This document shows positions 4,474 through 52,978 of a stretch of DNA of 64,000 bases, in pieces (within the stretch, counting starts at the first letter, position 1; every line of letters starts with the position of its first letter). The notes beneath the pieces were generated by a model that saw only the letters and a list, made by a program, of their open reading frames with translations, was not told the origin of the DNA and searched no databases. Source of the stretch: a virus; IMG/VR virus record IMGVR_UViG_3300025015_000010, positions 96,001 to 160,000 of that record; one strand, given 5' to 3'. The position numbers were made by a program, and so were the translations under genes.

Positions 4474-4501
4474 ATTATACACAATAGGTACATAATGTCA
4501 A
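4474..4501 (-). promoter_or_regulatory. sigma70-type promoter for the AAA ATPase
   Basis: TTGACA-16-TATAAT on minus strand. Confidence 0.7.
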
Positions 4502-4530
4502 GGATGAACTGTGCATATTAGTGCTAGAAT
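4501..4530 (+). promoter_or_regulatory. putative phage-type promoter motif, copy 1
   Basis: AGGAT-N14-AGTGCTAGAAT; same spacing as four other copies. Confidence 0.55.
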
Positions 4531-4536
4531 TAAATT

Positions 4537-4716
4537 ATGTCTAAACCCATGATTCAGTCACCGCCCGAAATCGACAAAGATGAGATGTCTAATCGTATTT
4601 TTAGTTTCCTTTCATCAGAAGGCCTATCGTTAAAAGAGATGTGGGAAGTCGGTGACTGGTTTTCTAAAGAAGCTCATCTTAAATATGTCGAGGCTAGACA
4701 AAGACTTTCTCACTAG
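4537..4716 (+). CDS. small hypothetical protein (59 aa, not in ORF track)
   Basis: ATG just after motif copy 1; MSKPMIQSPPEIDKDEM...QRLSH. Confidence 0.45.
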   Translation: MSKPMIQSPPEIDKDEMSNRIFSFLSSEGLSLKEMWEVGDWFSKEAHLKYVEARQRLSH

Positions 4717-4993
4717 TATTCGGTTTTAATGCCAGGCGTAGGTTGTCTATAACCCTGGAGTCATTTACTCCAGACATAGCAATAATAAAAGCCACAGCGC
4801 CTAGATAGGCATTGTCACTTAGCTTTAAGTTCAGAGCGTCTTTCCCTCCGACACTGACAGCTAACGTATTGATATACTTACCGAGTGAAGTTAAATCATA
4901 GCCAACCGGAAGCCACTGCACTGGCTGATGCCCCATGACATAGGCAACACGACCAAGAACAGTTGTTGGGTCAATGATGTTTACCGTGTCCAT
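4694..4993 (-). CDS. hypothetical cargo protein
   Basis: AGGAGG RBS before MDTVNII. Confidence 0.65.
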   Translation of the reverse strand: MDTVNIIDPTTVLGRVAYVMGHQPVQWLPVGYDLTSLGKYINTLAVSVGGKDALNLKLSDNAYLGAVAFIIAMSGVNDSRVIDNLRLALKPNTSEKVFV

Positions 4994-5096
4994 GAGTGCC
5001 TCCTTTAGTGGCTTAATTTCAAAACCAACTGTAACAACGCTTGGCACTCGCCCCGGAGTTCGCCTCCATCCTTCCTTTGATTTACTGTGCTCTAGG

Positions 5097-5957
5097 TTAA
5101 GGTTGCCAAGTTTCAATAACTACGATCATAAAACCATCTGGCCCTTGCCAGTCATCGCCGCTTGAACATCCTAGTCCGTGGACGTTTGGGCAGAGCACCA
5201 AAGGTCCACTTTGGTCGGCAATGAATTCGGTGGCGTCGCCCATTCCGCGTGGGTTTACAGGATCAATTCCTACACCAAATAGAAGTTGCATAGGTTTGCC
5301 AACAGGGAACATGCGTGAGTCACCGAAGGACTCTGCCTCAGATGATCCTTCAGGCCCGTGGTATCGCCAGTCAGACGCACATCGCCATTTGCCTTTAGCG
5401 CGTATTCTTATGTGATCCCCCGCTTGGATTGTAACTTTAGAAACATTTTGCCATCTTCCGTCACCGATTAATAATCCTACTCGTTGCTTGTAATTATGCG
5501 TATTGTCTGGAGTCCCGGCAGAGGTTATTTCGGCAAGCCAAGAGGTAATACTCTCTAGTAGCGGTGCCAAAGACGCGATAGTCTTCTCGCCTAGTCCATT
5601 AGGGTGGCCTGGGGGCTCAATTCTGGATTGGATTGTCGCTATTCCAGCCCAAACCAACTCTCGTTGTAGCGCCAAGTATTCGTCGCGTAACTGCGTGGGA
5701 GAAGCAGCTTGTTCTGCTACGGATAGTTTCTTTCTTAACGATTGATTTTCTTGTTGAAGTTGTACAACGGTGTCAGAAGAGGTCACAGGTGTTGCACGGT
5801 TGGTGGCGTTCAACTCTCGTTGTAGTGCATCGATCTTATGCTGAAGTTCAGCAATGGCTGTCACGTCTGGTGTGGCTGATGCTGCGGGCGTGCTGTTACC
5901 GCATCCGGCTAAAGCTAACCACGCCGCGCATAAACCTCCTAGTGCCCACTGTCCCAT
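5097..5957 (-). CDS. lipoprotein with coiled coil and C-terminal beta domain (possibly LecA/PA-IL-like)
   Basis: lipobox LAGC after hydrophobic signal; W...V.I.AGD.IRI.A.G.W pattern. Confidence 0.7.
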   Translation of the reverse strand: MGQWALGGLCAAWLALAGCGNSTPAASATPDVTAIAELQHKIDALQRELNATNRATPVTSSDTVVQLQQENQSLRKKLSVAEQAASPTQLRDEYLALQRELVWAGIATIQSRIEPPGHPNGLGEKTIASLAPLLESITSWLAEITSAGTPDNTHNYKQRVGLLIGDGRWQNVSKVTIQAGDHIRIRAKGKWRCASDWRYHGPEGSSEAESFGDSRMFPVGKPMQLLFGVGIDPVNPRGMGDATEFIADQSGPLVLCPNVHGLGCSSGDDWQGPDGFMIVVIETWQP

Positions 5958-6033
5958 ATCCTGCCTCCCTCCGAGAGGCGGCGTAATCGTCCTTCCATGA
6001 GAAAGGCGGGTACGCCGCTGATTGGTACTTCCC

Positions 6034-6127
6034 CTCGGTCGCACGAGTATCAATAGGGAAGGAGCACGCTATGTCCCCGTCCTCTGGGCGGGTACGTGCT
6101 GGCGTGCTCCCTACTCGTGCGACCGAG
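6034..6127 (-). promoter_or_regulatory. structured leader / sRNA upstream of outer-element lipoprotein gene
   Basis: perfect 16-bp closing stem 6034-6049/6112-6127 with nested stems; TTGCCT-17-TATCCT promoter at 6135-6163 (-). Confidence 0.55.
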
Positions 6128-6180
6128 TGCCAACAGGATATCAGAAACAACTCAAAAAGGCAAGAAGTTACTTGGAGCCA

Positions 6181-6210
6181 AGGACGGGCGTCCTCAAATA
6201 GTGCTAGACT
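6181..6210 (+). promoter_or_regulatory. putative phage-type promoter motif, copy 2 (upstream of outer transposase)
   Basis: AGGAC-N14-AGTGCTAGACT. Confidence 0.65.
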
Positions 6211-6248
6211 TCAAATAGCAATTGCCACATAACCAACTGGAGTTAGAG

Positions 6249-6398
6249 ATGTCTAGCACATTACCGTTTCCAAGAACTGATTATGAGTTCTACGAATTGT
6301 TTCCAAATGACCATGCGTGCATTGAATACTTAACCGCGCTACGGTGGCCAGATGGCTTCGTATGCCCGCACTGTGAGTCCCACGAAGGCTATTGGAAT
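6249..6398 (+). pseudogene. IS1595 transposase of outer element, N-terminal 50 codons
   Basis: RWPDGFVCPHC Zn-ribbon start; joins in frame to 10563. Confidence 0.92.
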
Positions 6399-6578
6399 CA
6401 GGCTTATCCGTTATTTGCCGGTAAGGCTTAGGTTAGCCTAAAAAGGCCAATAAATGCCCTTTGCGGCATTTAATCCCGCACGATATGTCCGGGGCAGACC
6501 CAATAGGGCTAATCCTGAGTTAGCATTTTTACGAGGTTTCATCGTCAGTTTCAAACACAGCTAGTCAGGAGACATTTT

Positions 6579-6704
6579 ATGAAGACGCTGGGAGTTATCG
6601 GTATAAGCGCCTTACTCGCTTATAGCATATTTCAGTTATTGGCCTTCGTCGGCCCAGGGAAAATATCGATGCCAATGTACGAGGGCACTCATAAGACAAA
6701 TTAG
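6579..6704 (+). CDS. small membrane peptide (41 aa)
   Basis: AGGAG RBS; MKTLGVIGISALLAYSIFQLLAFVGPG. Confidence 0.45.
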   Translation: MKTLGVIGISALLAYSIFQLLAFVGPGKISMPMYEGTHKTN

Positions 6705-7171
6705 TCACTAGTCTTTTCCCTGCGGAATATGAAGTACAAAGTCAGTGCTGCTAGAGAAGCCGAAGTAGCGAGTTGGATTACTTTCTTTTGTACTTGTGTA
6801 GAATATGCTTTTTTGTAATAGCACATGTTTTTGAAATGTTCGCAGTTGAATCTCTTTGTCCACTGAACATTAATCAGTGCTTCAGCCCGTGCAATAATTT
6901 GGTTAGCATGTTCTGGACTCTTAGGGTATCCCGCCGTAACAGCCCCGGATTTTACGGCTTCAATTCTTCCTCCGTGATCTTCTATGAATGTTTTGAAGAA
7001 TTCAGCCTTTGTAACTTTCGCGACACCTGCATTACTGTTGTTTGGCGAGTTGTGATAATAATGTCCTGCACCGTCGTAAATTCCATAATGGTCTACCTTA
7101 ATTGGTAGTCCTTTATAGACGGCGGGGATGTCGTGCAAGACTATGTACCAACCTTTCAACTTCGCGCTCAT
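6701..7171 (-). CDS. LRAT-like permuted NlpC/P60 protein with C-terminal membrane anchor
   Basis: HYGIY...H and NCEHF catalytic motifs; AGGAG RBS. Confidence 0.8.
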   Translation of the reverse strand: MSAKLKGWYIVLHDIPAVYKGLPIKVDHYGIYDGAGHYYHNSPNNSNAGVAKVTKAEFFKTFIEDHGGRIEAVKSGAVTAGYPKSPEHANQIIARAEALINVQWTKRFNCEHFKNMCYYKKAYSTQVQKKVIQLATSASLAALTLYFIFRREKTSD

Positions 7172-7292
7172 AATTTTACTCCTAGATAATTTGAGCCGCG
7201 TTTCGTCCGGCCTGAGTCTATCGGTTGAACCTAGCACCGTCTAGGTTCCTATTGACAAGCTGCCATCCGGCTCTTTATCCTACTTCAAGTTA

Positions 7293-7442
7293 CGTCACCG
7301 GGCTGTAGTACATAGGGAGAAACTCTGTTTTCTCCTCGGGGAGCAAGCCCCGCCCTGTCCATTGGGGACAGGCGCGGCGGCTATGCTTGCTCCCCACCTT
7401 GCCCGGTGACGGACAGTACGCCGTTCGCGTCTGTCCTTTTTA
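7293..7442 (+). ncRNA. structured leader / sRNA followed by terminator-like hairpin
   Basis: TTGACA-18-TATCCT at 7252-7281; 11-bp stems 7293-7303/7401-7411 and 7338-7348/7385-7395; hairpin plus T-run to 7442. Confidence 0.5.
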
Positions 7443-7466
7443 TTTGCCTTCGGGCAAGGAGGCGGT

Positions 7467-7851
7467 ATGGGCAAGGCAATGTTCTTGGCCATTGTTTTAA
7501 TTTCGTTTTTAGGTGGTTGCTCGTCCGTAGCAACTATGCGCGAGGCCGATCCCACCGAGGGCGCGTCGAAAACATATTCCGCTGATGTGCAACGGGTGGT
7601 AGACGCAGTCAGGCAAGCTATAACAGATGCAGGCTTCCCGTGTAGACGGCGGTGGCTGGTCAATCGTTGCAAGTAAGGGAATGTCAGCGTTTAGCTACGG
7701 CGAGTTTGTACGTGTCATGGTCGCTCCAGCATCGAACCCTAAGTCGTCTATTGTGCATGTTCTTACACGGCGGCGACTGGCCACAAATGTCACGGCCAAG
7801 GGTGATTACTCAGAAGCTATATTTGCTGGTATAGACCTTAGATTGCAATAA
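7467..7851 (+). pseudogene. lipoprotein, frameshifted near 7640
   Basis: lipobox LGGC; protein-like sequence continues in the 7627..7851 frame. Confidence 0.6.
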
Positions 7852-7896
7852 TTGTTTAGCTTCGCGGATTCATTGACTATTGCTGGAGAATTTTCG

Positions 7897-8874
7897 ATGC
7901 TTAGAAATGTGATATACGGGTTTTCGGTGGCCCTGTTGTTTAGTGCTTGTGGAGGTGGCGGCGGGTCGTCCAGTGCAGCACCAGTGCCAGGACTTCAAAC
8001 ACTAGTAGTTCCGTCTGTAAGTGATGTCAGGTTGGACGATGTAAATAGCCAGGGTATTATGCCGAAGAATTTACTTCTTGCTAGTGGAGTTTGGCTTACT
8101 GATCTAACAGGTGATGCCGTCGGAGGCAGTAGCGAGAGAGATATCAGTAGTATGGGCTTATTGCGAGACAAGAATAGCCTGTATGTGGCTTTAGTATTGA
8201 CCGCAGGAGGTGTTCCTGACGTGTCTGGCACCATACAGTATATTTTTAAGATTCAGGCCAGTGGAGCTACACAGAGGTTCGCGTTTAATGGGGATCTTAC
8301 TGGATATGAACCTCTTGTGAGCAAATTCACTGGGACTAATAACGTTACCACCACAGTAATTACTGATGGTCTTGGCGAGGTTTATGCTAATGCTATCATA
8401 TTTGAGATTCCCCTTGCTAACATTACAAACAGCGGCGGAGGGTTATCAGGAATAACAGCAACTGGTTATGTTCAGGCCGCCAATGTAGTAGCCGATAGCA
8501 CGCCGAGTGTATTGCTCGATTTTGGAGGTTACGTGCCCCTAGGTGACGCTAGTAATGATGGCACCTTTAGTAGCCTTCCCGTGTATGTTGCCCCACTGGT
8601 TACTGTTATTTCACTCAATCAGTCTGTGACAGTTGAGTGGTTTGTTGGAAATCCACCAGTAACTACAATTATTGAAACCGATATTCGGTGGCGTCCGAGT
8701 ACGATTGCTACGACCACTGTTGGAACTCAACATGCTATGTCAAATCCGGGGACGATTACTTCGTTTACCGATTCTTTTCTGCCGACAGCCCGAGGAACTT
8801 GGTTATTTTCTGTCTATGTAACCGACGGAGTGACAGAAGCAACTTCGACGGAGAAAGTTGTGATTGTTCAGTAA
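7897..8874 (+). CDS. surface lipoprotein with beta-rich domains
   Basis: GGAG RBS; FSAC-GGGGGSSS lipoprotein signal; Thr/Val/Gly-rich. Confidence 0.75.
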   Translation: MLRNVIYGFSVALLFSACGGGGGSSSAAPVPGLQTLVVPSVSDVRLDDVNSQGIMPKNLLLASGVWLTDLTGDAVGGSSERDISSMGLLRDKNSLYVALVLTAGGVPDVSGTIQYIFKIQASGATQRFAFNGDLTGYEPLVSKFTGTNNVTTTVITDGLGEVYANAIIFEIPLANITNSGGGLSGITATGYVQAANVVADSTPSVLLDFGGYVPLGDASNDGTFSSLPVYVAPLVTVISLNQSVTVEWFVGNPPVTTIIETDIRWRPSTIATTTVGTQHAMSNPGTITSFTDSFLPTARGTWLFSVYVTDGVTEATSTEKVVIVQ

Positions 8875-8893
8875 GTCCGTAGTACCGCAAATA

Positions 8894-8941
8894 AACAGTC
8901 GTGTTTGCCTTTTCATTGAGACAAACACGACTGTTTTATTT
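8894..8941. terminator. intrinsic terminator-like hairpin
   Basis: AAACAGTCGTGTTTG ... CAAACACGACTGTTT followed by T-rich run. Confidence 0.65.
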
Positions 8942-8996
8942 TCGCTCATAATTCAACCTGTATGAGCATATCAAAAGCAAGTTATATGTTTTGTCA

Positions 8997-9026
8997 AGGA
9001 CAGTATCTAGTAAATAGTGCTAGACT
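8997..9026 (+). promoter_or_regulatory. putative phage-type promoter motif, copy 3 (upstream of orf9073 and inner transposase)
   Basis: AGGAC-N14-AGTGCTAGACT. Confidence 0.65.
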
Positions 9027-9072
9027 TACAATAGGCACGTTACTTGTAAATTTATAATTAGGAGAAAATGGC

Positions 9073-9459
9073 ATGTCAATCTACATACCCGAGAGCGCGG
9101 ATATATCAGGTTTGGACGCATCATTCTGGAAGAAGAAAAAGAAGCCTGCCCCCGCTGTTAAACTGTCAGATAAATTGATGAAAGTTAAGACTTCAGCAGA
9201 ACAGAGCATGTTTAGTACAAAAGCTATTAGGATGACGACTGAACAAAGGTGCATTGCAATTGGTGGACGCTGGGACTCATCTACCAATAAGTGCTTCAAA
9301 CGAGTATGTAACAGCGCTGATATAACTTTGCCACAGCCAGTAGACCCTTATGCTCAGGCAAAGGCTGATTGTGCTGCTAAGGGCGGGCAGTGGTATCCAT
9401 TTGCTAACCCACAGAAGTGCTTCAAACGAGTATGTAACGAGGCTGATGCTGGATTTTAG
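9073..9459 (+). CDS. small Lys-rich protein with two Cys repeats (C...GG.W...KCFKRVCN.AD)
   Basis: AGGAG RBS; internal repeat visible in DNA (AAGTGCTTCAAACGAGTATGTAAC twice). Confidence 0.75.
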   Translation: MSIYIPESADISGLDASFWKKKKKPAPAVKLSDKLMKVKTSAEQSMFSTKAIRMTTEQRCIAIGGRWDSSTNKCFKRVCNSADITLPQPVDPYAQAKADCAAKGGQWYPFANPQKCFKRVCNEADAGF

Positions 9460-9488
9460 GCCAATTAACCTAGTTGATCGGATGAGTA

Positions 9489-18617: not shown

Positions 18618-19763
18618 ATGTCTAAAGAACTGATTACGCAGCTAGAAAGTCGGGTAGCTAGGGGGCTGATTAGTCGTAGAGATCGTGGACCGTTATCGAT
18701 CTACAATTACACAGACACTTGTACATTTGATCGCGCCTGGGACGAGTACACGATGGCTGCTCGTGGCCTGATTGTTAACCAGGTAACTAAAAAGGTAGTG
18801 GCCAGGGGATTTAGTAAGTTTTTCAATTATGGTGAGAATCCCGATATCGATTATACAAATTTTGGTCAATTTGAAGTCACTGAGAAGCTTGACGGCAGTC
18901 TTGGCATTATGTATTGGGACGAGTTAACCCAAATGTACCGGATTGCCACACGAGGCAGCTTCGAGAGTGATCAAGCCACCTGGGCAACGAATTGGTTGCA
19001 CAAGGAATTTTCTAACAGAGTAGGCATTATTAATGGCTTTGGTCAAGATCGAGGAATCACCCTAGTATTTGAGATCATTTATCCCGATAACCGTATTATC
19101 GTGGACTATCACGGTATTGAGGGGCTATTTTTGATCGGTGTGATTGAAAATTCGACGGGACATTCCTTTGGCTATAATCGAGTAGTCAATTGGGGCGAAG
19201 ATCACGGTTTTCAGGTAGTTAAATCGGTTCAAGTGACCAGTGTTCAAGAGCTTTTGGACTTAGCTTCTAAGCCTACAGGCAGGCCGACTGACGAGGAGGG
19301 TTGGGTGGTATTTTGGCCAAAAGCCCAATTGCGTGTTAAGATAAAGCGCGACGACTACATGCAACTGGCCAGGATTCTATCTAGGATGTCAGCCAGAGCA
19401 GTATTTGAGGCGGTTAGGGACGGTACTTTTGAGAATATGATCAAGGATCTGCCCCCAGAGTTGGCTAATGTACCGAGATTGTTAGAAGACGAAGTCAGCG
19501 CGGCATTTGCAACTGTGCATGACAACGCTGTAGACGCCCAGGATATTTTGTATGATCAGACAAAGAATAAACCTGAAATGTCCAGAAAGGACAAAGCACT
19601 GTTGATCCAAAGTGATTTACGGATTAAATGGTGCGCTTCGTACTTGTTTTCTATGCTGGATGGACAGGTTAATAATAAATGGCTGTGGAGTCAAGTTGAA
19701 GACAGGCTCAAAAAGATGGGCTATTTTATCCGCAGATTGCCTACCGAAGAGATTACGCCGTGA
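18618..19763 (+). CDS. T4 Rnl1-like RNA ligase
   Basis: ARGL, F.KFFN.GE, EKLDGSL, ATRGSF, FEII, EGWVV, RVKIK motifs. Confidence 0.92.
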   Translation: MSKELITQLESRVARGLISRRDRGPLSIYNYTDTCTFDRAWDEYTMAARGLIVNQVTKKVVARGFSKFFNYGENPDIDYTNFGQFEVTEKLDGSLGIMYWDELTQMYRIATRGSFESDQATWATNWLHKEFSNRVGIINGFGQDRGITLVFEIIYPDNRIIVDYHGIEGLFLIGVIENSTGHSFGYNRVVNWGEDHGFQVVKSVQVTSVQELLDLASKPTGRPTDEEGWVVFWPKAQLRVKIKRDDYMQLARILSRMSARAVFEAVRDGTFENMIKDLPPELANVPRLLEDEVSAAFATVHDNAVDAQDILYDQTKNKPEMSRKDKALLIQSDLRIKWCASYLFSMLDGQVNNKWLWSQVEDRLKKMGYFIRRLPTEEITP

Positions 19764-24985: not shown

Positions 24986-25015
24986 AGTCTACCACTTTTC
25001 CTAGGTGCTTGTCCT
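24986..25015 (-). promoter_or_regulatory. putative phage-type promoter motif, copy 4
   Basis: AGGAC-N14-AGTGGTAGACT on minus strand, ahead of the GNAT genes. Confidence 0.65.
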
Positions 25016-38946: not shown

Positions 38947-39026
38947 AGAGAAGTGTCCACAATCCCAGCCTTCTCACTGTTTTTTGTCATATAAGATACA
39001 AAATATTTCCTTAGACGGAGGATATC

Positions 39027-39293: not shown

Positions 39294-39295
39294 AG

Positions 39296-39856: not shown

Positions 39857-39857
39857 T

Positions 39858-42622: not shown

Positions 42623-42999
42623 TGGAACCAATTGGACATCAGATACTGGCAGTTTTGTACAATCATAGGATGAAAGATCCCAATGACATTAGTAACCCGG
42701 CTATGCCAGTGGAGGATCTATCCGAGCGAGTATCTAGATTTTTTACATCAGATTTAAATGCCTTAGTTGAACAAAATTTAGTTGAGTTTTGCGGCGGCGT
42801 TAGAATTACAGGTCTTGGCTGTGTATACTACTTGAATGGATTCAAATCATGAACAACGACGAAATAGTGGCCTGTGTCAATGCCTGGCAGAACAATCCAC
42901 ACGTGCATCCACTGACTTGCGGCACCGATTCAAATCATGTAGCATTGGTTCCAGAAATTCGAGATAACAACGTGATTCTGAAGTGCATAGATTGTTCGT

Positions 43000-44941: not shown

Positions 44942-45504
44942 GTCATCCAAAATTTTGCGTCTCAAACAGTTTCTTTGATAAATACATGTGTGGGCAGTGC
45001 TCAGCGTTTGCATTAGCTCTGCACGAGGTTTACGGGTTACAAATCGAAACGATTTTTGATCCTTACAGTGAAACAGGCCACTTTTACGTGCTTGTCGATG
45101 CCGAGCACGTTTTAGACTGTCGCGGTTTGATGCCCAAGAGTGACATTATCAAGGATTTTGGTTCATCTGAGGCGGTGTTTACGAGATTCAAGACCTACGC
45201 CGAGGCCGAAAATGAGGCCATGAGTTGGCTAGCTTCGAGGCTGGATTTTACGTCGGCTCAGCAGGCTGTAACACAGGCTAAACAGATAGTGCAGAATAAT
45301 CTCTGGCTTTACTCGCCAAAACCAGAAATCACAGGATGTGACTTCAAGGCACTATTTGATATTTCTGACTCAGGGTATGCACACGATTTTAGCCAAGAAG
45401 AAGTTGATAGTTTAGTACAGAGAAAGTACGTTAAGTATCGGCGATCAGGTAAATTAGTACTTCAGGTCAGGGGAAAAGAAGTACTACAGAAATTTAAGGC
45501 TTGA
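44923..45504 (+). CDS. hypothetical protein with papain/transglutaminase-like C-H-D pattern
   Basis: GQC.AFA.AL, H.YV, LD.RG. Confidence 0.5.
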   Translation: MATITVSHPKFCVSNSFFDKYMCGQCSAFALALHEVYGLQIETIFDPYSETGHFYVLVDAEHVLDCRGLMPKSDIIKDFGSSEAVFTRFKTYAEAENEAMSWLASRLDFTSAQQAVTQAKQIVQNNLWLYSPKPEITGCDFKALFDISDSGYAHDFSQEEVDSLVQRKYVKYRRSGKLVLQVRGKEVLQKFKA

Positions 45505-45535
45505 CTTCAGATGCCGAGAAATGTATAATGTTCAC

Positions 45536-45683
45536 ATGTACGGTCTAGTGTAGTGAGGAAACTCATACCTGAGCGTCTGGTGTCAGAACGGGATTCGGCT
45601 CCACCCCGAAGACAAGTGATCCTGAGGCCGCGAAAGTCGCCCAAGAGCAAGTATCAGGTACTTCTGGCTGCTAGACTGTGCAT
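45536..45683 (+). ncRNA. candidate structured ncRNA (about 150 nt)
   Basis: starts just after TTGACT-17-TATAAT (45501-45529); 13-bp terminal stem with plus-strand G-U pairs; GAAA loop. Confidence 0.55.
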
Positions 45684-46077
45684 TTAGCTCTAGGCAGAAA
45701 AGAGGATAAAAAATGGAATTCTTCGCTAGCTTGTCTTGGCCAGGTGCAGTGGCATTTTCGTGTATGTGTTTTGCAATCGCGTGGGTGCTGATTAAGTTTT
45801 TTGATTAGAAAGGATTAGATGATGAGCGAAGCTATGGATGCAATTCCTCAGTGGGTCGAAGCCTTAGAAAAGTTAGGGCTGCCAGTAGAAGCTAATATGG
45901 CTGATCTATTGAACAGAGCCATTATAGCCAACGGAGATGACTTAGCTTTCCTTAGGTTATTATCTACTTGGTCAGTGGCTCGGCGAGCCATGCGGGCGGC
46001 TGAATGGTATAGAAAGGCTGTAATCGTACCTGTGGCCGATCCGGGCGAAGTTAGTACGGTCAACCAGGAGCAAATTT

Positions 46078-46416
46078 ATGCAGAAGCCTAGAGAGTTAAC
46101 CACAGACGAGGTTCGCGATAATTTGCTTCGTCAGGTCTGGAGATTGATAGATTACTGGGATAGGAACGCACCCAAGCGAGACACTTATGGTAAATTGTCC
46201 GGACTGGCATTTTCTATTTTGGCCATGCTGGACGGCGCGGAGATTGATATACCACTTTTTATCGTCGCACCACGTCCTCACGAAGCAGACCAGTCTTATC
46301 ATGAGCAGCGCGAAGAGAATTGGTATCCATATAACGACCCTAGCAGCGTGAAAGGCGATGTGGCGGGTAGTTTGCATGAGTTGTTCCATAAGTTTAATCC
46401 TAGAAAGGATGGTTAA
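46078..46416 (+). CDS. hypothetical protein
   Basis: AGGAG RBS. Confidence 0.7.
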   Translation: MQKPRELTTDEVRDNLLRQVWRLIDYWDRNAPKRDTYGKLSGLAFSILAMLDGAEIDIPLFIVAPRPHEADQSYHEQREENWYPYNDPSSVKGDVAGSLHELFHKFNPRKDG

Positions 46417-46812
46417 TTATGAGCACTCGCATGTTGGCAGATTTTATTGCCGATACTGGTAATTCGCACAGTAGTGATTTAAGTTTGATCGCAAATCAGT
46501 TGGACACATGGGCGACTGATTCAAAGGTTGGTGGGTGGTCTACGCATCAAGTTGAGCCTATGCGAAAGTTGGCGGACAGTTTGCGTAGAAAAGCCAGCCA
46601 ACTGTGAATAACGCCCTCAAAATCAGAGCATTGACTAGAAACCTAGATACTCTAGGTGCAGCTTATTTGCCACACGATAAGTCTGCGGACTATCTTGACA
46701 TCGTGGCCCACATGACAAAATATTGTAGTAAATATAGCCTAGGCCTAGCTCATTATGATAATTGGCGCGGATCTGGGTATGTTTTCTTTGATATCAATAA
46801 AGTCGGTATTGT

Positions 46813-47481
46813 ATGATTAAAATTCCAGCATCTGATAAACAGTATGTAGAAGACATTATCGAGAGCGTAACATCTGAAGCTAGGAGTTGGACACTACATT
46901 TTGGCTGGTGTCTGTGGGTACAAAAGAATGACGATTTGCCAGATTTCGAGCCTAAGGCTGGGGATACGTTACGCTGCTACGGCAAGGGCCTAGGATTCTC
47001 TGTTCGCGGCATAGAAATCTTGCAAGGTGGTAAGTCTTATGTGCTGAGATATCAGACTGAAGCTGAAGCAGAGGCCACACCGGGACGATGGTTGGCTGAA
47101 GCCAATATTAGTAATGATCCAAAAACATTGTTCTCAGTGGATTCAACATCCGAACATGTATGTGAGCAATGCGGATGCGGATCTAACGGTTCTGTAATTT
47201 CAGACTCTTTCAGGACAAAAGCAGACGCAGATCTGGTCGTTTTTCTTCACAATAATGCTCTTGAGTTGTTTGATGGCGAGGAGTCGCCTGTGGAACATGG
47301 TACTATACTGGCAGATCGTTCAGCGGTAGAGGTCATGAACGGACACTGTCCAGACTGCGGCGAAAATGTGTACCATTATGGAAATGGACGCAGATGTAGG
47401 GCGTGTTTAACCGTATACACCCCGTCTATACACTTGGGCGAACTCGTGATGTTAACTTCCGGAAGACAGATCAGTCCTTAG
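46813..47481 (+). CDS. hypothetical protein, possibly chimeric
   Basis: abrupt switch at EAEA-TPGRW to a different phage small-protein pattern. Confidence 0.55.
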   Translation: MIKIPASDKQYVEDIIESVTSEARSWTLHFGWCLWVQKNDDLPDFEPKAGDTLRCYGKGLGFSVRGIEILQGGKSYVLRYQTEAEAEATPGRWLAEANISNDPKTLFSVDSTSEHVCEQCGCGSNGSVISDSFRTKADADLVVFLHNNALELFDGEESPVEHGTILADRSAVEVMNGHCPDCGENVYHYGNGRRCRACLTVYTPSIHLGELVMLTSGRQISP

Positions 47482-48047
47482 AAATGATATTGTTTAAATT
47501 GTGTTTAGTTACGATGCTTGGCTGCTCGCTCCAGGCTCAGGTCTACACGCCCCAAAACAACAGACATATTCTTTGGAAAATTCTTGAGAACCGTATTCGT
47601 GTAGACGGTTTAAGGCTGCTCCAACGGCAAACACAGTTTGACTATGGACATAGCTTGTACGAGCCGATGTTACCAGAGGTCAGAATTTTGCCAACTAGCA
47701 GGTTTGGTGGCAGGCTAAGTACCTTGAATAGGCCGTCAGACATGCTAATTGACAATAGGTTTTTGACTATTGACGACGCCCTGAAAATTAGAGTGAGCCT
47801 TCATGATATTTTAAGGATTACTTCGGATAGTCCCGATCAGGAACGAAATTCCGGCCAAAAACACGAGCCTTGGTGGAAGAAAATCAAAGTAGACACGAGC
47901 ACAGATATGAAGTTAAGTACAGACATGGTTAGAAGTTACAAGCTAAGATTTCGGTATTTATTTGGGCCTAGCGAGCTATATCTAGGTTTTAATTATTTTC
48001 CCGTTCGGGACAACGAGGTAGTAGCTGGATTTTCATTGACTTTCTAG
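47403..48047 (+). CDS. secreted hypothetical protein
   Basis: likely start MILFKL with signal peptide; ends in aromatic beta-signal-like FSLTF. Confidence 0.6.
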   Translation: MFNRIHPVYTLGRTRDVNFRKTDQSLEMILFKLCLVTMLGCSLQAQVYTPQNNRHILWKILENRIRVDGLRLLQRQTQFDYGHSLYEPMLPEVRILPTSRFGGRLSTLNRPSDMLIDNRFLTIDDALKIRVSLHDILRITSDSPDQERNSGQKHEPWWKKIKVDTSTDMKLSTDMVRSYKLRFRYLFGPSELYLGFNYFPVRDNEVVAGFSLTF

Positions 48048-48730
48048 TTTGGTATGTTATGATGTGGGTGTCTTAAAAACCGTTAAGCCCTTAGAAAGGA
48101 CATGGCACATGGAACCGCACATGAGACGTAGAATGGTCCAGGAACTTAGTCGAAGCCTTGATCGTCCTGTTAGCTCAGACGGAGATCAGGAGTGGGTCGA
48201 ACCGAGATTGGCTAAGGACGAGGTAGAGTATCTTATTGGAATGTTGCAAAGTACAGACGTAAAATTCATGCATGAAGATATTTTGGGTCGATTGTTCTTT
48301 GTGTAGGCCCTAGGATTATGCACGGATGGTTTGGAGGATAGTCATGTCTCGGATGAAGAAGTTTGCCGCTTTGATCAAGTTTAGTCACGAGTCTTCTCGT
48401 GGGTACGATCATTACGAGATTTTCGACTATGATATTGTTGCCCAAAATTTGGAGTCGGCCACAAATAAGGCTAGTCTCATCAAGTGTATAGGTCGCCAGT
48501 TTGACAGCATTGTTGAAATAAAGGAAGTTTGATTATGGAACATACAATTAGTAGCATCGATTTTCGTAAGTGGACCCGACAAGAGGTTATTGCGATTCTC
48601 AGGACAGCCAAGGATCGTAGGTATGATCCGCTTGTTCAATGGATAGCCGAGTCCGTCGAGTATGATAACATGTCTTATGCCATTCGGTGTGATATTGCCA
48701 AGTCAGAAACTAGAGTAAAGGTGTTAAGCA

Positions 48731-49258
48731 ATGGCTAAGTCCAAGGTATCGAATTGTTGTTTTGAACTGCGACTGGGCTCTGATGAGTCTATGTCAAATG
48801 CCTGCTTGTTGATTAACAATCCAGCCTATGTAGATAGCATCGAGGATGCCCTGGCTCATTTCGGTAATTGTCTCAAGACCGTGATTGAGCATGACGGTTT
48901 CTCTGGTAAAGATTGCTGTGGCGAAATAAAAAAGCGGGTTAAGGATAATTTCTGTTCGGTATGTGGGCGCAGATTTGAGTCCATGGACGTTTTTGATCAA
49001 GTTTGCAAACTAGTTCAATCTTTGTTTACATCTTCCAGCGTAGATTTAGGCCCCAACTGGGAGATTGTTATGCATAACGGCTGGGATGTTGGGGCACGGA
49101 ATGTTTCTGGGAAAGACTGGGAAAATCGTAGAATTGTTAGCAATGCCGATTTAGTGATAGCTTCGATTCTTGCAGATAGGCTGGATATCAAGGTAGACGA
49201 TGTTGATTACCTGGATTCGGACATGAGAAAAGGATGTATCGAGAGGGCTGGAGCGTGA
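48731..49258 (+). CDS. hypothetical Zn-binding protein
   Basis: CC...FCSVCG. Confidence 0.65.
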   Translation: MAKSKVSNCCFELRLGSDESMSNACLLINNPAYVDSIEDALAHFGNCLKTVIEHDGFSGKDCCGEIKKRVKDNFCSVCGRRFESMDVFDQVCKLVQSLFTSSSVDLGPNWEIVMHNGWDVGARNVSGKDWENRRIVSNADLVIASILADRLDIKVDDVDYLDSDMRKGCIERAGA

Positions 49259-49800
49259 TGGAAACTCAAACGACTTATGCAGAGGTAACTAGGGATTATC
49301 CGAAGGCCGTGGACGCTATCATGGCCAAACTGCGTAGTGGCACATCAAAGGAGAAGTCTGCTAGTCCGGAAGACCTAGAATGGTCTTATAGTTACGGGAT
49401 CGCAGTACAGTCGCAGTCATTTCAAGATATGTTGTCAAATATAGGTAAGCCTAGAGCACCGAAGAAGGTCACGCCCGAAGAGGCCGTAGACGCTATGGGC
49501 TTTGTTGTGTCGTTGCGAGGTAAGATTCGTCGTTGGTGGGCCTGGGAGGTGGTTACAGGTGTTCCTAAGGTCATTAGAGATTATCAGATTGGATTAGAGC
49601 GTAAGGCTAGAACAAAGCAAGCAACTTTTGATGCATTGCCAGACAGCGAAAAGCAGAAACAAACCGACGACGTTATCAGTAAGCTTTTTGGCATGGGCGG
49701 ATTTGCCGCTTTTAATATTGCTCCTGTGCCGTCTGTTAAGCAAAAATTAACTATCACGGTTCAGCCTAAGTTCAAGAAGAAATTTGATTTCGATGAGTAG
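49234..49800 (+). CDS. hypothetical protein
   Basis: ORF in operon. Confidence 0.65.
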   Translation: MYREGWSVMETQTTYAEVTRDYPKAVDAIMAKLRSGTSKEKSASPEDLEWSYSYGIAVQSQSFQDMLSNIGKPRAPKKVTPEEAVDAMGFVVSLRGKIRRWWAWEVVTGVPKVIRDYQIGLERKARTKQATFDALPDSEKQKQTDDVISKLFGMGGFAAFNIAPVPSVKQKLTITVQPKFKKKFDFDE

Positions 49801-50193
49801 TTAAATACAAAAGGAAGTGGTTATGCTAGTCCAGTCTCTGCGAGCCACCCAATTCGGAATTAGACTGGCAGCTTACATCGTCAGAGGCTAGGATAGCTGA
49901 AATGCTATTAGATACTACACGAAAATCGGAGGCTCGGTGTGCTGGAATGCGCATCTCGTGAAAAAGTCTTGCATATCGCAGCGGCGCTATGGAACTTCGA
50001 GCCCCCCCCTGTTAAAATGAGAACTTACTGGTGCGGAGAGGGTGTGTTTGATGAGCGATTTTGTACCAACCGAAGAATATAAGTCTCTTGTTAAGCAGAT
50101 ACTTGATGTCAAAAAAACACTGATTTGGACGTCAATATTGGTGTATAGTTCTATCGCCAGCATGTTCGTATTTATGGCCTGGAGTAGGATTCA

Positions 50194-50457
50194 ATGTCAG
50201 TGACCCACTGGAATTATCGTGTTATTAAGCGTATCTACGATACAGGCGAAGCTTACGATATAGGTGAAGCTTACTACACAATTTGCGAAGTGTTCTACGA
50301 CGAGGGCGGTAGTGTAAACCTGTATTCAGGACCGAAAAGCCCTCGTGGCGAGACACTCGATGATCTCAAAGAAAATCTATCATTTATGCAGATAGCTCTG
50401 AATAAACCTGTGTTAGATGAAAAGGACTTGACGGCATCCGATGAAAAGACAGCCTAA
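50194..50457 (+). CDS. phage hypothetical protein (WNYRV family)
   Basis: WNYRV...EV.YD...A..KPVL pattern. Confidence 0.7.
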   Translation: MSVTHWNYRVIKRIYDTGEAYDIGEAYYTICEVFYDEGGSVNLYSGPKSPRGETLDDLKENLSFMQIALNKPVLDEKDLTASDEKTA

Positions 50458-50550
50458 AGATATCTGGTCAGAAATCAAGTGGTATTACGGTAAGCGCATA
50501 GCGCTAGCCGTCTTGGTTATTTTTGCACTTGGATTTATGGCAGGTAAAGC

Positions 50551-50970
50551 ATGCCAGTAATCTCATCAGGTGCGGTTGTAGTGTCTATATTTGAAGATAG
50601 CACGAAGGTGCTACTAGTGCATCCGTCTGGACAAAAACTGGCTAATGGTTCTTGGAGTATTCCTAAAGGTGAAGTTGAGTTAGCTGAAGACTATACGGTC
50701 ACAGCGTTACGAGAAGTTAAAGAAGAGACTGGCCTAGACGTAAGTATAGTCTGCCCATTAGGTTCGATTACATACAAGAGTGGCAGAAAGATTGTGTTCG
50801 GTTTTTTGGCAACACCGATAGGCATAGTGAGTCAGGTAATGGAACCCCATTCTTGGGAAGTAGATCGTGTAGAATTTTTTTCAGTAGCCGAGGTCAAAAA
50901 TCTAGTTCATAGGGATCAAGTCGGGTTGATAGAGCGAGCCTTGAAAAGCATAGGTAAAGCATGCCAGTAA
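50551..50970 (+). CDS. Nudix hydrolase
   Basis: PKG.....E....TA.REV.EETG Nudix box. Confidence 0.9.
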   Translation: MPVISSGAVVVSIFEDSTKVLLVHPSGQKLANGSWSIPKGEVELAEDYTVTALREVKEETGLDVSIVCPLGSITYKSGRKIVFGFLATPIGIVSQVMEPHSWEVDRVEFFSVAEVKNLVHRDQVGLIERALKSIGKACQ

Positions 50971-52430
50971 ATTATACTATTCACACCGGCCATGTCCTGG
51001 ATCAGATAAAGAAGTTAGCTTCTAGCAGTGTTCATTGCGTTGTGACGAGTCCGCCCTATTGGGGTCTTAGAGATTACAAGACTGCACCCACAGTTTGGGA
51101 CGGAAACATTCAATGCTCTCATCAATGGACTGAGTCACGTCCAGGCAGACGAGCCAATACAGATGCTGGTCTGGCCTTAACAGGCACAGGTAGTCAGGAA
51201 TCTAGGCTACAGGGTTTGTGCGAAGCCGGAAGCGGTACTTCGAGTGCAGGCCAGTTTTGTTCTCTGTGCAGCGCCTGGCTAGGCAGTTTGGGCCAGGAAC
51301 CGACACCGCAGTTGTATGTGCAGCATCTTGTTCAAGCATTCAAAGAAGTAAAGCGAGTACTCAGGGATGATGGCACTTTGTGGCTTAATTTGGGAGATAC
51401 ATTTTCTGTAGGACCATCAGGTAGGCGCGATCATGGCGTTGAAGGCAGTGGGTCAAAATTAGGCCCTAGCCATGACGGTATTAAAGGCGGATCTGTTATT
51501 CAAGCTACAGGGAATAGGCGCTGTCCTGAAGGACTGAAACCAAAAGACCTGTGTGGCATTCCATGGCACGTAGCTTTTGCACTCCAAGAAGACGGCTGGT
51601 ATCTTCGCTCGGATATTATCTGGGCCAAAGGTGTATCTGGTCAAAAGATTGTCGAGGCACAAGTATTAAAGGCGTTGCAAAATAATAGCATACCCGATGT
51701 CGTAATTGAGAATGTACTAAGAGATTTAGGATTGTATTCGGGTAATCCTATGCCTGAGTCTGTAACAGATCGGCCGACCAGGTCACACGAGTATGTGTTT
51801 TTGTTGGCCAAATCAAAAAAATATTTTTATGACCACGAGGCAATCAAAGAGCCCACGGTTAGCGATCATAATAGTGGTAACGGCTTTAATCGCGAGGCAG
51901 GAGAATCTTATAAAAATACTGACGGTACTTTTAGAGGCAATAATAAACAGTGGGACGCTATTGGTACAACTCGAAATATACGGGATGTATGGGCATTAGT
52001 CACAAAGCCGCTAAAGCTGGCTCATTATGCCGCCTATCCCGTGGACCTGGTTGAGCCCTGTGTCCTGGCCGGAACCAGCGAGCACGGATGTTGTTCTGTC
52101 TGCGGTTCGCCCTATAAGCGCATACTAGAAAAGACTGAAGCAGCAAATCCAGGCTATAATGGCTCAAAGTTTGATTCAGGTAAAACAGGCAGTCGGGATC
52201 GGGGTGAGCGTACTCAGCACGGTGACAGATTTGTTAAGACGACCGCTGGATGGCAAGTTACCTGTGGCTGCACAGGGGCGGACATAAGTCCCTGTACAGT
52301 TTTAGACCCATTTTGTGGAAGTGGTACGACTGGTATAGTCACTTTGAAACATGGCAGAAAATTTATTGGTATAGAATTGAATCCAGAATATACTGAGATG
52401 GCCAAAATGAGAATCGAGTCAGGCAAATGA
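50961..52430 (+). CDS. DNA N4-cytosine/N6-adenine methyltransferase (beta class)
   Basis: TSPPY, NPMPESV, VLDPFCGSGTT, GIELN motifs. Confidence 0.92.
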   Translation: MPVNYTIHTGHVLDQIKKLASSSVHCVVTSPPYWGLRDYKTAPTVWDGNIQCSHQWTESRPGRRANTDAGLALTGTGSQESRLQGLCEAGSGTSSAGQFCSLCSAWLGSLGQEPTPQLYVQHLVQAFKEVKRVLRDDGTLWLNLGDTFSVGPSGRRDHGVEGSGSKLGPSHDGIKGGSVIQATGNRRCPEGLKPKDLCGIPWHVAFALQEDGWYLRSDIIWAKGVSGQKIVEAQVLKALQNNSIPDVVIENVLRDLGLYSGNPMPESVTDRPTRSHEYVFLLAKSKKYFYDHEAIKEPTVSDHNSGNGFNREAGESYKNTDGTFRGNNKQWDAIGTTRNIRDVWALVTKPLKLAHYAAYPVDLVEPCVLAGTSEHGCCSVCGSPYKRILEKTEAANPGYNGSKFDSGKTGSRDRGERTQHGDRFVKTTAGWQVTCGCTGADISPCTVLDPFCGSGTTGIVTLKHGRKFIGIELNPEYTEMAKMRIESGK

Positions 52431-52720
52431 TAGCCGCGTTTCATCTTGAAAAGGACTCGTACTTGTCCGTTTCTGTACTGGCTAAAAATCGTCGTGTTAA
52501 AGTAGTTGTATCCTCAGACGCAAGCGTGAATGTGGCTTTGTTTAGCACTAGTGCCTTTAATGACTACACTACTAAAGGCGAAGCCAACGCCGTGTGGTCT
52601 AGGAAGAACAGACATTTGATCGAAGATATAGTGAATCTGCCAGCGCCTGGAGAATATGTTTTCGTTATTGAAAATTGTGGTTCTGATGCCCTTGGGGGCA
52701 CCTGGGAAATATATGAGTAA
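52427..52720 (+). CDS. hypothetical beta-sandwich protein
   Basis: ORF in operon. Confidence 0.6.
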   Translation: MIAAFHLEKDSYLSVSVLAKNRRVKVVVSSDASVNVALFSTSAFNDYTTKGEANAVWSRKNRHLIEDIVNLPAPGEYVFVIENCGSDALGGTWEIYE

Positions 52721-52948
52721 TAAATCTCCAGAAAAAATCGCTGTTCCAAGTTGGATCGCCGGGGCAGGTTTGTTTACAGGTTTTGTATTAGCCTATTTAT
52801 CAAAATCGCCCAGAATGTTTGAAGAAGTCCACGCGGCGCTTAAAGAATTCCACTCTCCCAAGCCACCAGTAATAACAACTATTAGCTCGTCAGGCGAGCA
52901 AGTCACCCACGAAATTGTCATATTGGGATTGAACGGCAAGCCATTCGG

Positions 52949-52978
52949 CGGACAGCCTAGCTAAAAAAGTGGTAGACT
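52949..52978 (+). promoter_or_regulatory. putative phage-type promoter motif, copy 5
   Basis: CGGAC-N14-AGTGGTAGACT heading the 53016-57776 cluster. Confidence 0.65.

Follow-up and report, generated by a model that had tools for sequence, protein, structure and literature searches.

A candidate phage-specific promoter class shared by the backbone and the resident transposons of an uncultured large phage

Five sites in a 64,000-nt stretch of viral DNA (the window; positions 96,001 to 160,000 of IMG/VR record IMGVR_UViG_3300025015_000010) are, judged by their sequence, genuine promoters of a class specific to this phage lineage, here termed class B. They stand beside a second abundant class in the record, class A, which has the host-type form cTTGACt-N16-18-TATAAT. 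Our preferred reading, to which we give about even chances, is that class B is a middle-type class read by a phage sigma factor.

Distribution of the motif

A pattern scan of both strands with GGAY-N14-AGTGSTAGAMT returns exactly five matches in the window (Table 1) and none in 100 dinucleotide-preserving shuffles of it. The five copies reported in a first-pass annotation are all present, though each range given there took in one surplus base at its GGAY (5') end. A sixth perfect match sits beyond the window, at genome 66528-66556. Across the whole record (168,734 bp, 77% complete), GTGSTAGAMT occurs 16 times against 1.7 expected and GGAY-N13/14-AGTGSTAGAMT 8 times against 0.01 expected (200 third-order Markov simulations). 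The genome-wide scan that the annotation had called for thus yields further copies, about 17-20 sites in 168.7 kb, of which those in the window are a subset.

Almost every class B site lies between genes and points the same way as the gene that follows, and in nearly all the -10 box lies 12-66 nt upstream of the co-oriented start codon. Each window site occupies an intergenic gap and is aimed at a co-oriented ATG; the start codons, located in all five cases, bear out the earlier statement that each copy sits just upstream of a co-oriented gene. For the outer transposase, the ATG at 6249 has GGAG before it; the ORF list gives an in-frame TTG at 6222 instead.

Table 1. Predicted promoters, resident transposons and associated genes (window positions unless marked genome).
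Feature	Position	Strand	Elements	Start codon of gene served
Class B promoter 1	4502-4530	+	GGAT 4502-4505, AGTGC 4520-4524, -10 TAGAAT 4525-4530	4537
Class B promoter 2 (outer transposase promoter)	6182-6210	+	-10 TAGACT 6205-6210	6249
Class B promoter 3 (serves orf9073 and inner transposase)	8998-9026	+	-10 TAGACT 9021-9026	9073
Class B promoter 4, backbone	24986-25014	-	-10 TAGACT 24991-24986	24955
Class B promoter 5, backbone	52950-52978	+	-10 TAGACT 52973-52978	53016
Class A (host-type) promoter	4474-4501	-	TTGACA-16-TATAAT, 12/12 consensus positions	
Class A promoter, backbone	18566-18593	+	TTGACT-16-(TGG)TATAAT, before RNA ligase gene 18618-19763	
Outer IS1595-family transposon, Tn B	1748-11491		TIRs 1748-1770 and 11469-11491	
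Inner IS1595-family transposon, Tn C	6399-10554		Inverted repeats of 26-29 bp	
Outer transposase gene, split by Tn C	6249-11423	+	Pfam Zn_ribbon_IS1595, DDE_Tnp_IS1595	
orf9073 (128 aa) and intact inner IS1595 transposase (9489-10481, 330 aa)	9073-10481	+		
Sigma-70-family gene	genome 51109-51864		Pfam Sigma70_r1_2, r2 and r4 above cut-off	

Architecture of class B

The common core is aaAGTG(G/C)TAGACTtaaa(a/g)TAG. An optional GGAC(R) box takes the place of the -35 element, with its end 18-19 nt upstream of the -10 hexamer, and is followed by an A-rich spacer end, the extended -10 AGTG(G/C), the nearly invariant TAGACT, a TTAAA-like discriminator and a conserved TAG at the predicted start site. 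The box is found in only about half of class B, there at a fixed N13-14 from the extended -10; the extended -10 and the start region are constant. T-12, A-11 and T-7 are kept, as TAGACT or TAGAAT, in all five window sites and nearly every other class B site. AGTG(G/C), directly before the hexamer in all five, places TG at -15/-14, and position -13 is G or C in 27 of 29 TGNTAGAMT sites. A canonical TTGACA at 16-18 nt is absent from the window class B sites, and none of the five has a TTGAC box on its own strand, as the annotation had noted. Extended -10 promoters do not require a canonical -35.

Class B promoters of the resident transposons and the backbone

The window promoters are distributed as described previously: the three at 4502, 6182 and 8998 are in transposons and the two at 24986 and 52950 head backbone GNAT operons. 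The transposons are nested and carry cargo. Tn B is flanked by a 9-bp target duplication, TGAATGGGT (1739-1747 and 11492-11500), and its cargo includes an AAA-ATPase gene (2396-4375, minus strand). Tn C, flanked by the 8-bp duplication ATTGGAAT (6391-6398 and 10555-10562), sits within the outer transposase gene, the zinc-ribbon N-terminal part of which stops at the insertion (6398), with the DDE part appearing again after 10555 (the ORF list enters this part as 10611-11423). The split gene is 81-85% identical in DNA to an intact copy at genome 66528-67673. Assignment to the IS1595 family follows from DDE transposases with an N-terminal zinc ribbon (for the inner one, Zn_ribbon_IS1595 at 4e-13 and DDE_Tnp_IS1595 at 4e-26), from terminal inverted repeats of the form CAGGCTTAT(C/G)C... 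at both ends of all three IS1595 elements, and from target duplications of 8 bp for the inner element and 9 bp for the two outer-type elements.

Promoter 1 lies in the cargo of Tn B and serves a 59-aa ORF; its mRNA may be leaderless, since the ATG coincides with the predicted transcription start. The class A promoter at 4474-4501 is divergent from it and faces the AAA-ATPase gene. At promoter 2, the first base of homology with the intact copy at genome 66528 is the start of GGAC. Promoter 4 heads a minus-strand operon (24955-23789) that contains a GNAT gene (24360-24067), and promoter 5 a plus-strand block of about ten genes (53016-58063) with a GNAT gene at 53293-53742.

Class B precedes all three IS1595 transposase units in the record as well as an IS607 tnpA; the third IS1595 copy and the IS607 element are outside the window. 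Class B is missing from seven IS1595 loci that are more distantly related and from one IS607 relative. The proposal that IS1595 elements use this class therefore holds for the elements of this record and does not extend to the more distant relatives.

Could the motif be something other than a promoter, a repeated protein-binding or recombination site such as scattered transposon-derived sequence? One transposon family does account for three of the five copies in the window and for the closest similarity between copies (CAAGGAC...AAATAGTGCTAGACTT). However, the backbone copies occupy orthologous positions in relatives with no transposon ends near, orientation and start-codon distance are strict, and the layout corresponds base for base to -35, extended -10, -10 and start site. 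Moreover, for the variant TGCTAGACT at genome 43872, transcription is predicted to begin exactly where a tRNA-Met gene begins. We consider a non-promoter role very improbable.

Conservation and the GGAC box

Class B appears to be specific to this uncultured large phage and a few relatives. Both the core motif and the GGAC box are kept at orthologous sites in related metagenome contigs (L012, L014, L015, L016, L098 and L099). Promoter 2 is kept in L098; the ortholog of promoter 3 in L099 has the GGAC box and precedes a 121-aa ORF and a transposase; and in L015 and L016 the GGAC, AGTGG and -10 elements of promoter 5 are invariant. Relatives may also have the box where this phage departs from it: two sites with AGAC and TGAC here have GGAC in L012, and the GGAT of promoter 1 is GGAC in L098 (GGAC...AGTGGTAGAGT). 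No strong (>16-bit) core match was found in about 480 kb of unrelated phage contigs, and none of about 79 core matches in unrelated IMG/VR contigs has a GGAC box. Conservation of the box, whose absence would have refuted the proposal of the first-pass annotation, is thus evident at orthologous sites, but it concerns only part of the class.

What might bind this box? Class B could consist of T4-type, activator-dependent middle promoters, in which a phage protein binds GGAC and the host or phage sigma reads the extended -10. The fixed spacing of the box, its retention or restoration in relatives and the fact that it takes the place of TTGAC rather than being added to it would fit such a protein. 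So would the outer-transposase promoters, where GGAC lies inside a dyad that reads AGGACG-GG-CGTCCT in this phage and is perfectly palindromic over 16 bp in L098, an arrangement suited to a dimeric binding protein. Against this, a search for AsiA and MotA homologues with Pfam AsiA and MotCF found none in the record, which is about 77% complete, and about half of the class does without the box. Two positions also account for most of the difference between GGAC and TTGAC, and the distance is that of a normal -35, so contact by sigma region 4 is the simpler reading. An activator-dependent class is, on balance, improbable.

Host or phage sigma factor

The record contains exactly one sigma-70-family gene, the phage sigma gene that the first-pass annotation had led one to expect. 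It is compact, and its regions 3-4 can be aligned to SigA chains. Close relatives occur only in related phage contigs, and the next-nearest relatives in protein databases are cellular primary sigmas, at about 40% identity. Whether the sigma gene and class B occur together was examined in three short related contigs only. The Apyc1-sigma operon has a class A-type promoter immediately upstream, which reads TTGATT-17-TACACT in this phage and TTGACT-17-TACACT in L012. The record yielded neither a T7-like polymerase nor an Rpb2-type domain (multisubunit polymerase).

The main rival to a phage-sigma reading is that class B promoters are ordinary extended -10 promoters read by the host primary or a group 2 sigma. 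They would then make up an early class of lower strength or different tuning, the phage sigma would serve, for example, late genes in the missing part of the genome, and the transposons would carry host-compatible promoters. This is possible, though we think it rather unlikely. The TGn-TAnnnT architecture is intact, and because T-12, A-11, T-7 and the extended -10 TG are kept, the host primary sigma could read class B unaided. Variation at -35 inside the class (TGAC, AGAC, TTGAAAC) and hybrid promoters of the form TTGACT-17-TAGACT (genome 38001 and window 18519, minus strand) point the same way. TAGACT-type -10 boxes and leaderless starts, here an ATG at +1, are typical of Actinobacteria-type housekeeping promoters, which counts against reading by the phage sigma. 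The genes served, with their anti-defence-like GNAT operons and nucleotide metabolism, could be early. Finally, the phage sigma keeps most of the residues by which primary sigmas contact the -35 and -10 (Q437, R441, E458, E585, R588 and Q589, E. coli numbering); its specificity could therefore equally be class A-like.

Other observations argue the other way. In the alignment with SigA, the phage sigma departs from primary sigmas at the promoter-contact positions W433Y, T440Q, H455N and R584K (E. coli numbering). In the same genome, class A -10 hexamers vary freely, whereas the inner G-A-C and the start TAG of class B are nearly invariant, which is unusual. The -35 and -10 types are also coupled: GGAC is paired with TG(S)TAGACT in 6 of 9 intergenic cases and TTGAC with other TAnnnT hexamers in 14 of 16 (Fisher p = 0.01), in agreement with the annotation's separation of a second class from the TTGAC promoters. 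A class A-like and a class B promoter stand in tandem before one operon (genome 56175 and 56211), an arrangement kept in L012. A scan of positions 4300-9300 with a generic sigma-70 consensus, which may not be that of the host, calls none of the three class B sites there and does call the neighbouring minus-strand class A promoter. If the host sigma reads class B, moreover, the phage sigma gene, itself behind a host-type promoter, is left without a visible target class in the record.

Genes served and proposed mechanism

Class B serves genes for thymidine kinase, ribonucleotide reductase and a phosphoesterase, GNAT operons, a sugar-biosynthesis block and transposases. Such a set suggests middle or delayed-early rather than late expression. 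The 77%-complete record yielded no capsid or terminase families, and support for tying the class to late or virion genes is lacking; of the 'middle/late' label given earlier, the first half appears to fit.

In a phage-sigma scheme, host RNA polymerase with the host primary sigma would first fire class A, and the class A promoter before the Apyc1-sigma operon would lead to synthesis of the phage sigma. This would then direct the host core polymerase to class B, turning on nucleotide metabolism, the GNAT/accessory operons and the sugar-biosynthesis block, together with the transposases encoded by the IS1595 and IS607 elements that the phage carries. The transposon promoters would be matched to the phage transcription programme, and infection would be the main period of expression for the transposases and for one cargo gene or more. 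A stronger version, which we put forward tentatively and hold to be possible rather than probable, is that the IS1595 and IS607 transposase genes, along with one or more of the cargo genes, depend on a class B read by the phage sigma only. They would belong to cargo-swapping elements resident in one phage lineage, silent outside infection and moving with middle transcription, and would act as the phage's accessory-gene shuttle.

Relation to known systems

Primary-sigma extended -10 promoters have TGnTATAAT, with TRTG in Gram-positives. Class B resembles them in TG at -15/-14, in T-12, A-11 and T-7, and in a weak or absent canonical -35, but differs in that the inner GAC, AG at -16/-17, the discriminator and the start triplet are nearly invariant and the GGAC box recurs. 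Phage sigma cascades with their own promoter consensus include SPO1 gp28 (Bacillus middle promoters) and phiEco32 gp36, in which the host holoenzyme makes an early sigma that redirects the host core polymerase to a phage-specific class. Those sigmas are highly divergent and their promoters unlike sigma-70 promoters, whereas the sigma here is near primary sigmas in region 2, the promoters keep TGn-TAnnnT, and sigma dependence is putative. A phage-specific promoter class with a phage sigma is already a known kind of system. Class B would be a further example of this gene-timing strategy and not a new system type, contrary to the suggestion of an undescribed system in the first-pass annotation.

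In the jumbo phages vB_PcaM_CBB and GAP32, a consensus RpoD-like class precedes small early genes, including a phage sigma-factor gene, and 'divergent RpoD-like promoters' with a normal -10 and TGAAACG at -35 precede DNA-synthesis genes; these are predicted from sequence only (PMC5259590). Here too, two sequence-predicted classes share one phage genome. The differences are GGAC(R), the invariant AGTG(S)TAGACT and conserved start region, an unrelated lineage and sigma, and a class common to phage and resident transposons.

The 53-kb Microbacterium cluster EC/EI siphoviruses, of high-GC Actinobacteria, have a sigma gene and about 12 copies of an asymmetric intergenic motif of putative function, TAGaCTCTaGGTgTaAgC, which starts with TAGACT and lies 21-30 bp before start codons (PMC7302621, PMC9224216). 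Both cases combine a phage sigma with TAGACT-containing repeats close upstream of genes; however, the sequence after TAGACT differs and the GGAC/AGTG elements are not described there. Beyond the related contigs, phage-record matches to this sigma are at most 39.6% identical, and homology with the EC/EI sigmas is not established.

According to Edgell et al. (2010), as cited in PMC5259590, homing endonuclease and intron genes of T4-like phages are expressed from phage middle or late promoters. As far as that citation goes, selfish DNA in the present phage would likewise use phage temporal promoter classes, the elements here being cargo-bearing DDE (IS1595) and serine-recombinase (IS607) transposons, unlike those of the T4-like phages.

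Significance

If the host sigma reads class B, what emerges is a routine map of promoters in an uncultured phage, which even so aids annotation of transcription units and a guess at the host. If the phage sigma reads it, GGAC / AGTG(S)TAGACT and this sigma form a previously unmatched promoter/sigma pair that might serve as an orthogonal expression switch. Phage-resident DDE and serine transposons could then be tuned to the temporal programme of the phage, which, if true, would bear on the routes by which large phages acquire and swap their accessory and anti-defence cargo.

Two promoter classes

Listing all TGN-TAnnnT sites of the record reveals two recurrent forms. Class A, of host type, has the form cTCTTGAC(T/A)-N16-18-(ATGC)TATAAT with a -10 hexamer that takes many forms (TATAAT, TATGCT, TACACT, TATAGT and others). 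Its intergenic copies number about 25-30 and are most frequent in the minus-strand blocks of small ORFs and ahead of RNA-repair genes and small RNAs. Class B, defined by an iterated weight matrix, reads aaAGTG(G/C)TAGACTtaaa(a/g)TAG with about 15 strong copies and a small number of variants. The first-pass annotation had described five copies of GGAY-N14-AGTGSTAGAMT, and this observation is confirmed, with exactly five matches in the window (see table) and none in 100 shuffles. The further copies that it expected genome-wide are also present, as a sixth exact copy (genome 66528-66556) and as class B at large. In the whole record, GTGSTAGAMT is found 16 times against 1.7 expected, and GGAY-N13/14-AGTGSTAGAMT eight times against 0.01 expected.

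Class B sites fall almost exclusively between genes, although just 9% of the record is non-coding, and in all of them a co-oriented ORF lies 12-66 nt downstream, which for the site at genome 19054 becomes apparent once a 60-aa ORF is recognised. When TAGACT is counted as -12 to -7, the conserved TAG puts A at +1 and G at +2. It is well supported, and very probable, that these sites are promoters of a distinct, lineage-specific class; that the motif is a repeat without promoter function is highly improbable.

At three class B promoters (window 4525, genome 38001 and genome 46915) the predicted start falls exactly on an ATG, suggesting leaderless mRNAs. In several promoters of both classes an ATG follows the -10 hexamer at a distance of exactly 7 nt (see table). 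The sequence suggests that leaderless mRNAs are common in this phage, and they may offer a clue to the host phylum. In the stretch genome 43869-43957 (L003:3869-3957, L003 being a segment of the record), a TGCTAGACT box also lies 12 nt before a tRNA-Met (CAT) gene. Transcription is predicted to start right at the 5' end of the mature tRNA, so that this end would need no processing.

A downstream palindrome, TAGACTT...AAGT, was considered as a class feature and rejected, as it fits only one or two sites. The tetramer CTAG, which shows no genome-wide depletion (4.1 per kb), occurs in the spacers of four class B promoters (window 9003-9013, 24997-25007(-) and 52955-52965; genome 59590-59600). Four copies against about one expected at the genome rate for the ~240 nt of spacers is at most a marginal excess.

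Promoters and mobile elements of the record
Feature	Position	Strand	Remarks
Exact GGAY-N14-AGTGSTAGAMT match	window 4502-4530	+	serves small cargo ORF of Tn B
Exact GGAY-N14-AGTGSTAGAMT match	window 6182-6210	+	transposase promoter of Tn B
Exact GGAY-N14-AGTGSTAGAMT match	window 8998-9026	+	transposase promoter of Tn C
Exact GGAY-N14-AGTGSTAGAMT match	window 24986-25014	-	
Exact GGAY-N14-AGTGSTAGAMT match	window 52950-52978	+	
Class B promoter	genome 19054		head of sugar-biosynthesis block
Class B promoter	genome 54415	-	thymidine kinase operon
Class B promoter	genome 56101	-	phosphoesterase
Class B promoter	genome 56211		ribonucleotide reductase operon; tandem behind class A-like promoter
Class B promoter	genome 59616		hydrolase operon
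Class B promoter	95571		operons upstream of window start
Class B promoters	window 24991 (minus), 52973		two GNAT-containing operons
Promoters with ATG at 7 nt	window 4525-4539, 18519-18505(-); genome 38001, 46915, 94991, 116668, 160811		both classes
Tn A	genome 64485-67673		IS1595-family; intact
Tn B	window 1748-11491		IS1595-family; 9-bp duplication
Tn C	window 6399-10554		IS1595-family; 8-bp duplication ATTGGAAT; inserted in Tn B transposase gene
IS607-type element	genome 46927-48952		serine recombinase and TnpB; class B promoter at start (46915)

The GGAC box

Of 25 class B sites in this record and the related metagenome contigs L012 and L014, 13 have GGA(C/T) ending 18-19 nt ahead of the hexamer and 15 have GAC there; the remaining sites show TTGAAAC, TTGACT or nothing recognisable. 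Since the box is present in only part of class B, the motif first described corresponds to the GGAC-bearing members of a wider class. Three observations show that the box is real all the same. Box and hexamer types are coupled (Fisher p = 0.01), GGAC being paired with TG(S)TAGACT in six of nine intergenic promoter-like sites and TTGAC with other hexamers in 14 of 16. Two promoters with AAGACA and CTGACA in this record have CGGACG in their L012 orthologues, and the orthologue of the window 4502 site in the related contig L098 has GGAC in place of GGAT. Finally, GGAC at the class B distance is seen in none of the ~79 core-motif matches from unrelated IMG/VR contigs. Taken as the -35 hexamer, NGGACR lies 17-18 nt from the -10, and this spacing to TAGACT is normal geometry for sigma region 4. 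Binding of an activator at the box is an improbable alternative.

In the promoter of the outer transposase (Tn B), GGAC is half of a dyad, AGGACG-GG-CGTCCT (window 6186-6199). Its L098 counterpart (~4925-4945) is a perfect 16-bp palindrome, GAGGACGGCCGTCCTC, and that of Tn A is degenerate. Such a dyad might be an operator for transposase autoregulation.

The phage sigma factor and the reading of class B

The record contains one sigma-70-family gene (genome 51109-51864, 251 aa), as the first-pass annotation had predicted. Regions 1.2, 2 and 4 are found by Pfam, and regions 3-4 can be aligned to solved SigA chains. The protein scores below all curated NCBIfam cut-offs for RpoD, RpoS and RpoH and passes only that of the generic sigma-70 superfamily model. 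Its three close relatives all come from related phage contigs; the next in the protein database are cellular primary sigmas at ~40% identity. Matches in the phage collection reach at most 39.6% identity (at most 36% for bona fide phage sigmas of Microcystis and Vibrio phages), and an IMG/VR search with the protein returned no relative. No AsiA or MotA homologue was found in the record.

The sigma gene follows an Apyc1-type anti-Pycsar nuclease gene and stands directly behind a class A-type promoter, TTGATT-17-TACACT (TTGACT-17-TACACT in L012), an arrangement that would be expected of an early gene opening a second class. The nuclease gene (genome 50215-51096, L003:10215-11096; Pfam 1e-34) lies immediately upstream in the same operon, and the pairing is kept in L012 and L013.

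That this sigma reads class B is the favoured reading, at about even odds in our estimate. The assignment is favoured by the near invariance of the inner -10 bases and start region, whereas class A hexamers vary, by the coupling of -35 and -10 types, by the tandem of class A-like and class B promoters before one operon, and by the sigma gene, which sits behind a host-type promoter and has no other target class in sight. The chief alternative, rather unlikely in our view, is that class B sites are ordinary extended -10 promoters for the host primary sigma: class B keeps the TGn-TAnnnT frame, hybrid promoters exist, and the contact residues of the phage sigma resemble those of primary sigmas. 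In the alignment with SigA, in E. coli numbering, Y430, W434, Q437, R441, E458, E585, R588 and Q589 are kept, and the changes are W433Y, T440Q, H455N and R584K. These changes are modest, yet they fall at positions touching -12, the TG motif and the -35.

Transposons that carry class B

The record has three elements of the IS1595 family, which show terminal repeats CAGGCTTAT(G/C)C... and target duplications. In each, cargo, a class B promoter and the transposase follow one another between the left and the right repeat. Tn A and Tn B have different cargo, and their homology restarts exactly at the promoter GGAC. Back to back with the window 4502 site, a perfect class A promoter points at an AAA-ATPase cargo gene of Tn B. 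The proposed use of this promoter by IS1595 elements holds for the close relatives: a Tn B-like element in L098 (transposase 84% identical) and a Tn C-like one in L099 (69% identical) have the same promoters with GGAC. It does not extend to seven distant IS1595 loci (32-47% identity), which gave no class B match and where the terminal repeat is close to the transposase gene.

The IS607-type element occupies other positions in L012 (14247 onward) and L013 (102 onward), and is thus mobile with its promoter, with recent movement inside this phage lineage. An IS607 from another contig, 67% identical, has TTGACA-17-TATACC as its promoter, not class B. The presence of class B on IS1595 and IS607 elements here and its absence from distant relatives indicate that the promoter type of this phage lineage is also that of its mobile elements. 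Other genes of TnpB type are found at genome 67858-69015, 83428-84663(-) and 88501-89673. The earlier interpretation, an alternative and possibly phage-encoded sigma promoter shared with transposons, is partly supported, and transposition would be coupled to the phage programme only if the phage-sigma assignment holds.

Gene content and genes served

The linear record (168,734 bp, ~77% complete by CheckV; the window is its bases 96001-160000) holds ~290 densely packed ORFs, with 9% non-coding. It encodes a family A DNA polymerase, helicases, ribonucleotide reductase, thymidine kinase, a Ro60-like RNA-binding protein, DNA methyltransferases, the Apyc1-type nuclease, RNA ligases, a CCA-adding enzyme, five tRNAs and several TnpB-type genes. 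Terminase_6N, TerL_ATPase and HK97-type capsid have no match in the ~77% complete record, and among ~40 larger ORFs scanned against PHROG none matched a virion structural protein, the sole 'tail'-category match being an RNA ligase gene (window 18618-19763). No single-subunit polymerase was detected in the record, and no Rpb2-type (multisubunit polymerase) domain. It looks like the non-structural portion of a large virulent-type phage. Deposited phage records have no DNA match to it, and no WhiB gene was found. In a host search against genomes, the best matches of the IS1595 transposase are just 32-47% identical and spread across phyla; relatives of the IS607 TnpA (at most 70% identical) are taxonomically scattered.

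The genes that class B serves, listed in the table, also include all of the transposases. The set has a middle or delayed-early profile without any tie to late genes, in a record where the terminase and HK97-type capsid families are not detected. Before the ribonucleotide reductase operon, the class A-like (TTGACT-17-TACACT) and class B promoters stand 36 nt apart (genome 56175-56216, L003:16175-16216), with a divergent class B promoter ~110 nt upstream of the pair, an arrangement kept in L012 (~9240-9285). The sugar-biosynthesis block, headed by a class B promoter, is a co-directional 16 kb (genome 19969-36147, segment L002) with several nucleotide-sugar epimerase-like genes, and is unusually large for a phage glycan-biosynthesis module.

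Conservation in related contigs

The related contigs are few: L012, L013 and L014, with a sigma 77-86% identical to that of this record; L015 and L016, neighbours of the methyltransferase gene; and L098-L101, with relatives of the transposons. The core is kept in every orthologous class B promoter falling within them. At the window 52950 site GGAC, AGTGG and the -10 are invariant in L015 and L016, in line with the predicted conservation of the GGAC box. The orthologous intergenic regions and flanks are themselves 87-91% identical overall, which is too close for conservation by itself to set the motif apart, and phylogenetic footprinting was rejected for this reason. Co-occurrence of sigma and motif in relatives was followed in L012-L014. 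No strong (>16-bit) core match occurs in ~480 kb of unrelated phage contigs, and the IMG/VR-wide scan gave no clustered core motifs, only 75 single matches that look like chance, none of them with a GGAC box.

Relation to known systems

The classical sigma cascades of SPO1 and phiEco32 are functional parallels to class B and the phage sigma, as are T4 mobile elements expressed from T4 promoters (cited in PMC5259590) to the class B transposons. In the jumbo phages CBB and GAP32, an RpoD-like early class includes the phage sigma gene, and DNA-synthesis genes are preceded by a 'divergent RpoD-like' class with a different -35 (PMC5259590). Microbacterium phages of clusters EC and EI have a sigma gene and a repeated intergenic motif starting TAGaCT (PMC7302621, PMC9224216). 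With the parallels above, these are the closest descriptions. No description of the class B motif, of this sigma or of the sharing of the motif with DDE and serine transposons was found in the literature. The importance of the system would rise if sigma dependence and the coupling of the transposons were shown.
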